DNA of 50,014 bases from Eledone cirrhosa (Eukaryota). Position numbers and translations under genes: made by a program. The DNA lies in the NCBI GenBank assembly GCA_964016885.1, contig CAXHJY010000135.1, positions 1 through 50,014 on the forward strand, read 5' to 3'. The notes beneath the pieces were generated by a model, which worked only from the letters and a program-made list of their open reading frames with translations, did not search any database and was not told the origin of the DNA. Below, piece by piece: positions 30,510-42,398 of the stretch; the stretch's first letter is position 1; each line of letters begins with the position of its first letter.

Positions 30510-30877
30510 AGATTTCTTTATTAGCCACAAGGGCGCAACAAGAAAGGGGACAATACAAAGACATGCCGGGGATTTTACATAGAGTCGCGTAAAAAATATA
30601 AAAACAAACAATTTCAACAATCGAAATCCCCAATAGGGGGGAGGCGCCACAAATGGGTTGTTTAATACCCCGTCGATAGAACAACCCTCAACTCGAGGAG
30701 CGTGTTGTGCAAGTGGTCCCTTCTTCCTTTTGCTCTCTTCCTCAACCTACAGGCTTATAAACAGAGAAGGCCCAATCACTCGGGCCATTTTCGCTTCATT
30801 CACCCACCTTTCAGTAAATTTACTGGGGTGCAGTGCCTCTCTCTCCACCCTTATTCTGCTTCTAAAGTGATACTTTA
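30510..30877 (-). mobile_element. Tx1-like element, 5'-truncated 3' end (copy 1)
   Basis: Encodes KYHFRSRIRVEREALHPSKFTERWVNEAKMARVIGPSLFISL plus 3'UTR; flanked by GATA repeats. Confidence 0.85.
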
Positions 30878-30916
30878 TATAGATAGATAGATAGATAGAT
30901 AGATAGATAGATAGAT

Positions 30917-31401
30917 ATCTTTCTTTATTTGCCACAGGTGCGTACAAAAATGGGACATTACAAGACGTGACGGCGGGGGTTTCCATAAAATCTTTAACAA
31001 TGATAATGGATAACAATAAAATATATATAAAATAAAACAATCGAAATGCCCAATAGGGGAGAACGTTACTGCGGGGTTGTTTTACACCCCCATTGATAGA
31101 ACAACCCTCAACACCAGGAACACGTTTTGTAGGTGTTCCTGTCTACCCTCTGTTTGTCTTCCTCAACCTACAGGTTTATATACAGAGAAGGCCCATTAAC
31201 TCGGGCCATTTTCGCCACATTCACCCACCTTTCAGCGAATTTACTGGGGTGTAGCACCTCTCTATCCACTCTCACCTTCCTTCTGAAGTGGTACTTAAAG
31301 AAGGGGATAAATTGTTTGCCCTCAGTCCTTTTAACCTCGTCCACAATATTACCTCTTTCGCCATAACCACCACACAGAGGAAAACCGCCTATCCTTCATT
31401 C
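30917..31401 (-). mobile_element. Tx1-like element, 5'-truncated 3' end (copy 2)
   Basis: Homologous ORF2 C-terminus and 3'UTR between (GATA)n tracts. Confidence 0.85.
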
Positions 31402-31424
31402 TTAGATAGATAGATAGATAGATA

Positions 31425-33352
31425 ATTTTCTTTTTATTTGCCACCAGGGCATCAAAAAGTGGGACAAGTACAATGGGGGGAGTTTACATAACAAGGCGTC
31501 CTCAATAAGGAGGAGGCAATAACAAAATATAAATATAAAATAAAATATAACAAAATAAATTTTATAACAAAATCCTCAATAGGGATGAGGCGCCTTGGGG
31601 GGGCGCACACACCCCCGAAAAAAAGTGTGCAACCCTTCTCCTCAGGAGCACAGAGAGGGGTGCTCCCTTGATCTTTCATCTTCCTCACCTATAGTCTGAT
31701 GTAGAGTGAAGGCCCATTCACACGGGCCATTCTCGCCACTTTCACCCACCTTTCATAAAAACGACTGGGGTGCAGCACCTCTCTCTCCATCCTGATCCTT
31801 CTTCCGAAATGATATCGGAAGAAACGGACCAGTTGTTGGCCAGAGAGAAAGGTGTCTGACCTCAGTCCTTTCAGATGCGTCCACCATACAACCTCTTTCG
31901 CCATGGCTATTACGCACAGAAACACCGCCTCTCCTTCGTTTTTGAAGAGGGGAGGCGGCTTGATCGTTACAATAGACTCGGTGGTCAACCGGATCGGTCC
32001 CAACCTTGACAACAGTTGTTCGACATAGCCCCACAGATCGGCAATGCCCGAGCAGTGTACCAATGCGTGTGCAACGGTTTCCCCGTCGCACACGCATCTG
32101 GGACAGATCTTTTTCGAGGGGTCCCTACCCGGGCGCCCGTGTCTGTAGAGCCTTTCTCGAACGGGCAGAGCCCCTCGGTAGCACTGCCAGACCAGGAACT
32201 TCTGGAAGTTATCCATGGGTCCCGAGCTGAATGTCCTACCGAACAGGTTGGCCAGTTCGTCTTCCTCCATGCCTAGGGCTTCTCCGAGGGCGTCGTCGCA
32301 CCTGCTAACCACCAGCCCTCTATAGAATGACGAGGTGGATTCTCCACTGACAGCCGGGTCCGCCTGCCAGAGAGCCGTGAGCGCCTGGGCACACTCGGTG
32401 TGCCAGGCGCCCAGTTTTCTCGGTCTTTGCTTGACCCAGGATTGCAGCTCGGTGAGTGAGACGAGTCTGGGAAAGGCTCGCCTCACAAACGGGGCCCACA
32501 CCGGTTGACCGGTGAGGAATACCTGGAGGTGCAGTAGCCTTAATGCGTGTTTACGCATCATTAGCCACGGCATCCCCAGCCATCCTTTCGAAGGGTGTTG
32601 ACAGCAGATGGATCTCCTCACCATAGAAGCCCGCTTCTTCCAGAGGAATTGGAAGAGTGCGCGTTCCATTTTGGCGAGCGTTTCCCTTGGGCAAGGCACG
32701 ACGGTCAGGCGGTAGTAGATGACGGACGCTATATAAGTGTTCGCCACCTCCGCCCGACCTTTCAGGGACAGTTTGCACTCGGCCCACTTCTGGGTGAGTG
32801 CAAACACCCTGTTCATTACCTCACCCCAGTTCTTCTCCACCTGGAGGTCTGGTCCGAACCAGACCAACTTCACCGGGCCCTCCGTCCAGCGCCCGACGAC
32901 GCCATCGGAGGGCATCGATCTGCCCCTCCACGTGCCGAGTTGCAGACCGATCGACTTGTCCCGGTTCAGCTTAGCCCCTGTAAACCTTTCGTACTCCTCC
33001 AGTAAGGTGCCGATCGCCCCGATTTCCGAGGCCATCGACACCATCACTGTTATGTCGTCGGCGTAGGCCGACACCGCTTTCCGCAATCCCGGTTCCAACG
33101 GGATGCCCTGCAACAACTCCAACTTCCGCAGCAGTGGCTCTAGAGTCATTACATACAGAAGGGAGGAGAGAGGGCACCCTTGTCCGATGGACCGCGCGAT
33201 TTCGAACGGATCCGAGAGGTAGCCGTTCACCTTGACCCTAGAGCAGATGCGGCTGCTGTGCATGGCATTGATCCAGACCCTGAAAACGGGTCCGAAGCCT
33301 GCCGCCGCTAGCACCGCATCCAGGTAACCATGGTCAACCCTATCGAACGCCT
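31425..33352 (-). mobile_element. Tx1-like element, 5'-truncated 1.9-kb copy (copy 3)
   Basis: Begins within the RT at AFDRVDH; both ends abut (GATA)n. Confidence 0.9.
31689..33352 (-). pseudogene. Truncated ORF2 (RT C-terminal half plus zinc finger) of Tx1-like copy 3
   Basis: AFDRV, QGCPLS, YADD, CPRC..ETVAHALVHC; still open, with a 2-aa deletion relative to the full-length ORF2. Confidence 0.85.
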
Positions 33353-39456: not shown

Positions 39457-40272
39457 ATTAGTAAGGTAGATAACCTTTGTTAATGCATATACACATTAAA
39501 AAGCCATTTAGAAATAAATACATGAAACAGAAATACAGATAATAAGTTAGACAGGTACACAGGTAAGCTAATGGTAACAACGCATTTGAGTAGTAAACTG
39601 TTTACTACATGTATATATATATATAAAGTTTATATATGTATGTATATATGTATGTATATATAAAGTTTAAACCAGACAAACATTGGTGAACAGATGCGTG
39701 AGTGCGTGTGAGTATGTGCGTAGTATGTGTTTTGTGTGTGTGCGCTTGTGTGTGTGTTAGTGTGTGAATGGTGGGTTGTTTTACGTGTGTGAGTGGTTGG
39801 GAGTTCTGTGTGTGTGTGTGTGTTTGTATGTGTGTGTGTGGTGAAATACAGAGCAGATATCTAGTTAAGGAGAGTGCAAGATAGGTAATTTATTGTTCAG
39901 AACATCCATTATGCAGGAAAGCATTAAAAAGTGATGTGGAAACATAAATATATGGTGAACTACAGAGATAGTTAGCTAGTCTGACATATTGGTTAATATA
40001 TTGTTAGCATACTTAATGTAGGGAAGCATTAAAAAGCTATCTAGTCATATGTGTAGTGAAACAAATAGATTGATCTTCAAGTAGATATATAGTGAGGTAA
40101 TACTAACATTATATTTAATACACCTAAGAATTAAATCTGATGTAGAAATATATGTTGAAACGAAGAGATTGATACGTAGACAGGTAGATAGATAAGTTAA
40201 TATTACCAAATTTAATACAGGTGAGAATTAAAAGAAATGTAGAAATATATGTGATGAAATAATAAATAGATA

Positions 40273-40657
40273 TATTTCTTTATTAGCCACAGGGGCACAA
40301 AAGAAGGGGACAAATACAAAGGGGGAAGTTTACATACAATAAAAACGTAAAATGTTATCACAGATGGAATTTAAAAGTTAGTCGATTTTCCCCAATAGAG
40401 GGAGACAGTTTATATGGGTAACACATACCCCCGAAAAAAAATGTGCAACCCTCATCTCCAGGAGTACGAAGAGCTTGTACTCCTTTCCTCTCCTCCTCCT
40501 TTTCCTACAGGCTGATATAGAGAGAAGGCCCATTCACTCGGGCCATTCTCGCCACTTTCACCCACCTTTCATAAAACTTGCTGGGGTACAGCACCTCTCT
40601 CTCCATCCTGATTCTTCTTCCAAAGTGGTATTTGAAAAAGAATCAGTTGTTGGCCGG
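40273..40657 (-). mobile_element. Tx1-like 5'-truncated copy 6 with 63-bp flanking duplication
   Basis: ORF2 C-terminus plus 3'UTR; 40210-40272 is identical to 40658-40720. Confidence 0.87.
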
Positions 40658-40923
40658 ATTTAATACAGGTGAGAATTAAAAGAAATGTAGAAATATATGT
40701 GATGAAATAATAAATAGATAGTTAGAAAGACAGGTAGATATGTAAGATGATGTTAACAGCATATGTAATACAGGTGAGAATTAAATGCTCTGAAGAAAAA
40801 TATGTGTTGAAATAGATAGGTAGATAGTAAGACAGGTGCATAAGTTACTAGTAATGTACATTATTCAGGTGAGAAGGAAACGCAATGTAGAAATGTAAGC
40901 ATAGTGAAACAAATAGATAGATA

Positions 40924-41531
40924 TATTTCTTTATTTACCATAAAGGCATAAAAAGAAGGGACAAATACAAAGGGGGGAGTTTACATACAATCGAGTAAAA
41001 AGGGTATAACATGAAAATAATCGAAAATAACCTCAAAAGGGAGGGGACGTGATAGGGGTTGCACACACCCCCGAAAAAGTGTGCAATCCTTTGCCCGGGG
41101 TGCACATGGAGAAGGTGCTCCCCTCTCCTTTACTTCTTTACCTACAGGATGGTATACAGAGAAGGCCCATTTACACGAGCCATTCTCGCCACTATCACCC
41201 ACCTTTCATAAAACTGCCTGTGGCCAAGCACCTCTCTCTCCATTCTTATCCTTCTTCCGAAGTGATATCGGAAGAAGTAGACCAGACTATGGCCAGAGAG
41301 GAAGTTGCCTGACCTCAGACCTTTCAATCGTGTCCACCAAACAACCTCTTTCAACATGGCTATTACGCACAGAAAAACCGCCTTTGCTTCCTTTGTGAAG
41401 AGGGGAGGCGGTTTGATTGTCATCACGGACTCGGCGGTCAATTGAATCGGCGCCACCCGCGACAGCAGTCGTTCGGCGTAGCCCCACAGATCAGCCACGC
41501 CCGGACATTGCACCAATGCGTGCGCAACGGT
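40924..41531 (-). mobile_element. Tx1-like 5'-truncated copy 7 with 20-bp TSD
   Basis: Encodes TVAHALVQC...GPSLYTIL; GTGAAACAAATAGATAGATA at 40904-40923 and 41532-41551. Confidence 0.9.
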
Positions 41532-42398
41532 GTGAAACAAATAGATAGATAGTTAGCTAGACAGGTATATAGGTAAAGTAATGTTAACATACGTTATGTA
41601 GGTGAGAATTAAAAGCTCTAAAGAAATACGTATAATTAAACAAATAGATGGATAGTCAGGTCGACAGGTAGATAGTTAACTTAACGTAAACAACATATTT
41701 CATACAGGTGAGAATTAAAAATTATGTAGAAATACTGCGAAACATAGGTAAATTATTGTTAACATACATTATACAGGTGAGAATTGAAAGCAATGTAGCA
41801 ATGTAAATATTGTGAAACAGGTATATAAATTAGATAGACAAGTACATAGGTAAGGTAATACAGGTGAGAATTGAAAGCAATGTAGCAATGTAAATATTGT
41901 AAAACAGGTATATAGTTAGGTAGACAAGTACATAGGTAAGGTTATACAGGTGAGAATTGAAAGCAATGTAGCAATGTAAATATTGTGAAACAGGTATATA
42001 GTTAGGTAGACAATTACATAGGTAAGGTAATACAGGTGAGAATTGAAAGCAATGTAGCAATGTAAATATTGTGAAACAGGTATATAGTTAGGTAGACAAT
42101 TACATAGGTAAGGTAATACAGGTGAGAATTGAAAGCAATGTAGCAATGTAAATATTGTGAAACAGGTATATAGTTAGATAGACAAGTACATATGTATAAA
42201 GTATTGCATATGATTGAATAATATATTGTAGTCACCATATGTACACAATTATAATAGACATATATATATAGATATATATATATATAGATATAGATAGGTA
42301 AATATACACGGGTGTGTATGATTGTGTATAGAAGATTATATTAATAATCAGTATTATTTACAGTTGAAAATTGCAAACTCGACTGTCACCACATATTA

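Follow-up and report, generated by a model that had tools for sequence, protein, structure and literature searches.

In the octopod Eledone cirrhosa, we identified a family of long interspersed nuclear elements (LINEs) that, judged by its sequence, belongs to the L1 group (L1/Tx1) of retrotransposons that lack long terminal repeats (non-LTR), with about 22,000 copies placed strand-specifically after the motif AGATA. These insertions probably arise through a nick at AGATA^GATAG on the GATA strand, made by an apurinic/apyrimidinic endonuclease-type (APE) domain and priming reverse transcription. The family was recognized in a stretch of 50,014 nucleotides (the window; contig CAXHJY010000135.1, positions 1 to 50,014, forward strand, assembly GCA_964016885.1) that holds seven copies of it. 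A non-LTR element is regarded as target-specific when more than 20% of its flanks share a target (PMC4494074). The family is target-specific in this sense, with AGATA at 81% of its 3' ends, AGATAGATA at about 60%, and one satellite position shared by 32/32 loci of a sister subfamily, named H.

Genome-wide 3' junctions

The 3' ends were collected across the genome with a pattern taken from the 3' tip of the element only, and the reversed control pattern gave 0 matches. AGATA in register precedes 18,218 of the 22,358 ends (81%), and AGATAGATA precedes 13,532 (~60%, with a slightly looser element pattern). The opposite-strand form TATCTATC, allowed in any phase, is found at 3 ends, one of them at a tail-to-tail junction. 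The background was estimated from 20 random 10-kb regions, in which the per-base frequencies are 0.0017 for AGATA, 0.0104 for TATATA, and 0.00007 for AGATAGATA (27 cases). The corresponding enrichments are ~490-fold, ~4-fold, and ~9,000-fold. A first-pass annotation, made from the letters of the window alone, had proposed that the endonuclease of these elements recognizes GATA repeats strand-specifically. The strand-specific recognition stands on the genome-wide counts (18,218/22,358 after AGATA; 13,532 against 3 on the opposite strand), while a choice made by the endonuclease alone would go further than these counts, and pairing between RNA and target may contribute.

The same annotation had placed none of the copies in the far more abundant TA/TACA tracts. 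For TA tracts this is true of the window, where (TA)6+ tracts cover 8,550 bp and (GATA)3+ tracts 396 bp, and 0/7 copies lie in a TA tract. Genome-wide, TATATA precedes 1,007/22,358 ends (4.5%), so TA tracts are not excluded as sites; they are used at a low rate, per site ~100 times below AGATA. At the 82 ends of any subfamily read in the first 20 Mb of contig C1, a region that over-represents subfamily H, the junctions are AGATA (54), AGAGT (13), ATATA (6), AGGTA (3), AGAGA (2), and other sequences (4). What is recognized seems to be a short motif, AGATA^GATAG, for which (GATA)n offers the best match, rather than a long tract as such.

These counts also bear on whether the copies were inserted nearly at random and have merely survived or piled up in repeat-rich regions, as has been invoked for Waldo-A/B of Drosophila (PMC3812793). 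The window, an unplaced and repeat-saturated contig, would suit such passive accumulation. Selection on location cannot produce a register exact to the base and a 13,532-to-3 strand bias, and AGATA is found at 43/44 copies of a young subfamily, D. We rejected this explanation, with which strand and register both conflict, and regard it as hardly credible.

Copies in the window

All seven copies lie on the minus strand, with 3' ends at 30511, 30918, 31425, 33377, 39369, 40273, and 40924. The copies and their surroundings are arranged as follows.

30511..30875, minus strand: copy A (subfamily A), 365 bp, truncated at the 5' end, 93-95% to A copies of full length
30918..31402, minus strand: copy B, 5'-truncated, ~485 bp, flanked on both sides by GATA tracts
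31425..33352, minus strand: copy C, 5'-truncated within the reverse transcriptase (RT) region, 1.9 kb, 96% to a full-length C copy
33377..39082, minus strand: copy D, 5,706 bp (5.7 kb), the sole full-length element of the seven, young subfamily
39083..39368, plus strand: (GATA)n tract that contains variant units of 13 bp and separates copy E from the D 5' end
39369..39410, minus strand: copy E, 42-bp 3' tip, C-like
40210..40272, plus strand: target-site duplication of F, 3' side, 63 bp, ends AATAGATA, identical (100%) to 40658-40720 and found nowhere else in the genome
40273..40658, minus strand: copy F, 5'-truncated, 386 bp, 97% to another F copy
40658..40720, plus strand: target-site duplication of F, 5' side, followed by GTTAG
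40904..40923, plus strand: target-site duplication of G, 3' side, 20 bp
40924..41531, minus strand: copy G, 5'-truncated, 608 bp, 97% to a full-length G copy
41532..41551, plus strand: target-site duplication of G, 5' side, exact 20 bp, ends AATAGATA, followed by GTTAG

Every copy ends in AATAAA-(0-2 nt)-GAAA-NN and passes directly into TATCT, as first described for these seven ends, and poly(A) (six or more A) is found neither here nor at any of 220 distinct junctions sampled from the genome (0/220). The contact of five of the seven copies with (GATA)n was likewise borne out. The 3' untranslated regions (UTRs) of the six longer copies share a pairwise identity of 58-75%, which agrees with the several co-oriented subfamilies that had been proposed; the number of types is six rather than seven, because copy E is only 42 bp long and C-like. 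Copy C holds an open frame of 576 codons, and the duplication of copy A is TATATAGATA (10 bp).

Copies F and G lie in a diverged minisatellite that is present at this locus only, and no usable empty-site joint for 39870-41760 was found among the contigs compared. Their exact duplications share the same ending, as the first-pass annotation had noted, but they mark the latest point at which the nick could lie rather than fixing it, since these letters would also be restored by an RNA with UAUC at its end. The 63-bp exact duplication of F is three to five times the usual length in the family. The GATA tract (39081-39368) has a 13-bp higher-order unit repeated ~22 times.

GATA as target rather than tail

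We collected 220 distinct 3' ends and found the 5' end within the fetched DNA for 173 of them, the other 47 being set aside; the 5' ends were called automatically, and some of the misses may be miscalls. A GATA-like motif is present at the 5' junction of 70/91 truncated copies (H copies and TATATA junctions left out). Among isolated truncated copies, with no element within 150 bp, GATA is present at 40/58 5' junctions compared with 1.8% of random 36-mers, which argues that GATA is the target of these elements and not their tail. Apparent duplications are 5-63 bp long, in most cases 7-25 bp, their length being ambiguous in pure repeats, and the base that follows the duplication is G in 77/92, giving AGATA^GATAG.

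If TATC were instead a repeat tail made by the element, the GATA tracts would be products of insertion. Most 3' ends do contact GATA repeats, and a tract between two stacked copies could belong to either of them. The 5' sides of the isolated copies disagree with this explanation, as do the many 3' junctions that share just 4-7 matching bases with the repeat or none, and TATC is not an obligatory tail because junctions without GATA exist (TATATA, AGGTA, AGAGA, AGAGT). At F and G, a non-repeat target was duplicated exactly and nothing was added. On the 5'-side GATA, the junctions without GATA, and the clean F and G duplications, we rejected the tail, which we consider very improbable. Random 5' flanks genome-wide with TATC as a mere tail had been named as the result that should overturn the original proposal; the flanks are GATA-like far above chance, and the proposal survived.

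Several observations nevertheless weigh against a GATA target. About 19% of the ends do not follow AGATA, and some of the 4.5% that follow TATATA lie deep within pure TA tracts. For many copies a clear duplication was not seen, and in a subset picked regardless of subfamily, GATA is found at the 5' junction of only 14/27 isolated truncated copies.

Neighboring copies within 7.5 kb are co-oriented in 37/39 pairs genome-wide, so the stack in the window is typical. Among the loci L161-L220, many older copies have internal deletions or combine two subfamilies, as the mosaic L061 does. At L116 and L117 (G000:C11, ~35.23 Mb), the truncated 5' end of an F copy joins ~260 bp of histone H2A-like coding sequence, which lies in the opposite sense and inside the duplicated target. 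This segment is likely a capture of H2A mRNA during insertion.

Element D and its place among non-LTR retrotransposons

Copy D encodes two overlapping open reading frames (ORFs).

37043..38878, minus strand: ORF1, 611 aa from the first ATG, with a predicted RNA-binding region, a candidate CCHC knuckle, and a Pro/Thr-rich tail
33609..37109, minus strand: ORF2 frame, 1,166 codons from stop to stop, with APE endonuclease, RT, and C-terminal zinc finger

In ORF1, CX2CX4HX4C is visible, though the Pfam zf-CCHC match (E=0.019) lies below the cut-off, and its look-alikes in the protein atlas are of CCHC/RRM type (0.87-0.92). An ORF1 with an RNA-binding domain and a CCHC knuckle is a feature of the Tx1 clade, and the ORF1 of human LINE-1 is not known to have a zinc knuckle. 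ORF2 matches PF03372 and PF00078 above the cut-off and PF13966 (zf-RVT) just below it, and the Pfam search of ORF2 returned no match to RNase H. Its best match in the Protein Data Bank (PDB) is human L1 ORF2p (E=8e-49, 169 bits across endonuclease and RT); R2 reaches at most 85 bits over the RT only, in a PDB set without CR1, RTE, and I-group references. The conserved APE residues of the human L1 endonuclease (L1-EN) are present in the alignment with the ORF2 endonuclease. A single-sequence fold of the endonuclease reached a pLDDT of 57 and was not used. Together with 5'-truncated copies that carry target-site duplications, the ORF2 of APE, RT, and C-terminal zinc finger supports the assignment to the L1 group.

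At the predicted start of ORF2 (37043-37050, minus strand), no ATG is found in 42/42 copies read; in D the ORF1 stop is overlapped by ATA, at a place where eight other references have Met. This arrangement suggests non-AUG or coupled initiation of ORF2.

The subfamily of D is young. The 40 best genome matches to its last 344 bp are all 100% identical, 39/40 of the best matches share its start position, and most are 98-99.98% identical at full length. The genome holds 570 D-type 5' tips. In a sample of 44 copies, which is skewed to young copies because it was picked by identity, ORF2 is kept in 25/44 and both ORFs in 17/44; AGATA precedes 43/44, and 43/44 have the uniform 5' end followed by ATAG.

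Among named kin, ORF2 is closest to sequences of Argonauta (67%, over the RT), cuttlefish (52%), and sea cucumber (43%). No named Tx1 sequence appeared among the matches of the homologue searches and cluster look-ups, in which the atlas names are generic only. (GATA)3 was found at 0 of 80 metagenome loci of relatives, which are distant (mostly 22-45%). Octopus vulgaris has 80 L1-Tx1 families, covering 56 Mb, of which 13 were recently active (PMC13282606), and relatives of the GATA family may be among them. The text of that paper gives no target sites for these families, and GATA is absent from the text and from supplement file 1; for octopus L1-Tx1 elements, the available part of PMC8967140 gives no targets either.

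Microsatellite targets are known in the Tx1 clade from the teleost elements Kibi, (TC)n, and Koshi, (TTC)n, and from crocodilian families in (TTCC)n/(TTTC)n (PMC4494074, PMC3812793). Microsatellite targets are also given as ACAY, AC, TC, TTC, and TAA (PMC3812793) and TG (PMC4640811); GATA is not among these targets. Compared by description only, Kibi, Koshi, and the crocodilian families are likewise APE-type non-LTR elements specific to microsatellites, but theirs are pyrimidine/purine tracts in vertebrates, whereas the Eledone family uses GATA and has ~22,000 copies. As AGAGA is found at only 2/82 junctions, the family does not share the (TC)n/(TTC)n targets; it works like Kibi and Koshi and is not a member of either. 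Tx1L of Xenopus laevis also has an APE endonuclease with a sequence-specific target, which is the DNA transposon Tx1D and not a microsatellite or satellite (PMC1950540). Human LINE-1, the closest solved structure across endonuclease and RT, resembles the GATA family in a short AT-rich consensus and variable duplications; the L1 nick is at TTTT^AA and a poly(A) tail is copied, whereas the GATA junctions carry no poly(A).

Proposed mechanism of insertion

Target-primed reverse transcription is established for this class of elements. In the mechanism that we propose, the APE endonuclease would make the first choice of target by nicking at AGATA^GATAG on the GATA strand, and the nick would then prime reverse transcription. 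The AATAAA signal lies ~10 nt from the element end, so that the transcript would include a few bases of adjoining UAUC repeat, and its pairing with the GATA primer at the nick would bypass the poly(A); this read-through and pairing would explain why poly(A) is missing. Full-length RNAs may also carry a short piece of target at the 5' end, whose pairing with the target would produce the uniform 5' junction. Each insertion would leave fresh target on both sides, which would account for the co-oriented stacks. Annealing of RNA and target has been proposed for SART1 (PMC7265360), and in R2 a 5' heteroduplex, with carried target pairing with the target, gives uniform 5' junctions (PMC3774820). R2 RNA bears upstream 28S sequence at its 5' end (PMC3774820), comparable to the carried target proposed here. 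R2 differs in its restriction-like endonuclease and HDV-like ribozyme; the GATA family has an APE endonuclease, and the Rfam search found no ribozyme match near the threshold at the 5' end of D.

Alternatively, the endonuclease could be loosely specific for purine-rich, RRTA-like sites, with most of the GATA bias coming from read-through UAUC RNA that pairs with the nicked strand, so that targeting is inherited through the RNA. This arrangement fits the AATAAA ~10 nt from the end with poly(A) not copied, the off-target junctions that are AT- or AG-rich look-alikes (ATATA 6, AGGTA 3, AGAGA 2 of 82), the target sequence on the 5' end of some H copies, and the few endonuclease positions that separate H from all GATA subfamilies. 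Yet constraint extends to the bases past the nick, with which the RNA 3' end cannot pair and which are GATA in ~80% of 92, and the junction at locus c202 reads AAATATA^GATAG. In addition, Tx1L has an endonuclease that by itself nicks the Tx1L target in vitro (PMC1950540). The constrained bases downstream of the nick speak against a loose enzyme guided by RNA pairing, and we consider this alternative unlikely; target choice by the endonuclease at AGATA^GATAG is the reading that we prefer.

Sister subfamily H at a 72-bp satellite

Subfamily H (e.g., L179, L338, and L343) comprises 333 copies, and 336 H-type ends follow AGAGT (with a slightly different pattern). The insertion site is TATATAGAGT^AATGTAAAT, and at 32/32 loci read the AGAGT junction falls at a single position of a 72-bp satellite. 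The copies listed on the two largest contigs (26 on C1, 19 on C2) are all no more than 31 Mb away from a contig end. Some H copies form head-to-tail arrays.

H and D are 72% identical in the endonuclease and 88% in the RT. The stretch at the conserved active-site Tyr reads YAPFW in 8/9 H copies (1 unparsed), and that Trp is found in 0/37 parsed non-H copies. In trees, H is placed inside the octopod group at an unresolved fork; a tree with all GATA subfamilies together is not rejected (approximately unbiased test, AU p=0.057), and the RT-only tree nests H with a support of 80/93.

All H copies with a full 5' motif (30/30) continue with AGATGTTAT into the satellite at the same base. The satellite unit at the 5' end matches the 3'-side unit exactly in just 2/30, and on this ground a 65-bp duplication was dropped as its explanation. 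At L338 and L343, the 5' unit is canonical beside H but takes the local form farther away, which sets it apart from the other units shown for these arrays. [quoted passage not shown] For D, such carried target is unreadable because the target is a simple repeat.

A wider scenario, to which we give somewhat less than even weight, is that an as yet undescribed octopod Tx1-like lineage recognizes GATA repeats strand-specifically, that H switched to the 72-bp satellite at chromosome ends by a small number of endonuclease changes, most notably a Trp in place of Gly three residues past the conserved Tyr, and that both RNA ends carry guiding target sequence. Parts of the H data pull the other way. 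The carried 5' target is clearly visible at two H loci only; at L329 and L339 the first unit is a short form that is also present locally, most loci cannot tell, and other H loci fit a small target deletion equally well. The alignment shows no H-specific residue in the beta-hairpin loop linked to L1-EN specificity.

Other sequences of the window

Very long degenerate TA arrays with recurring short non-TA spacers occupy 619-12108 and 25714-28147. Short frames at 23487-24214 and 45878-46369, with RT-like and C-terminal pieces, resemble fragments of another LINE.

Significance

LINEs that seek repeats are already known; the GATA target and the satellite site of sister subfamily H are apparently new here. 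Literature searches, which did not extend to Repbase, Dfam, or Kojima and Fujiwara 2004, found no GATA-targeting LINE, and the available parts of PMC8869645 and PMC1950540 name no GATA target, so that the target is apparently unreported so far. How the APE endonucleases of LINEs acquire and alter sequence specificity is poorly understood, as PMC3812793 states for microsatellite targeting, and loop grafts failed to transfer specificity (PMC1950540). A young family with thousands of readable junctions, together with a sister that has another target, amounts to a natural swap experiment. If the switch of H is true, a single genome would hold in D and H a rare pair of young, closely related APE enzymes that are 72% identical yet differ in DNA target, and swaps between them could test which residues underlie the target specificity of LINEs. 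In Eledone cirrhosa, the (GATA)n tracts of the genome serve as landing sites on which LINE stacks grow, a point of importance for annotating repeats, for assembly, and for the use of GATA microsatellite markers in octopods.

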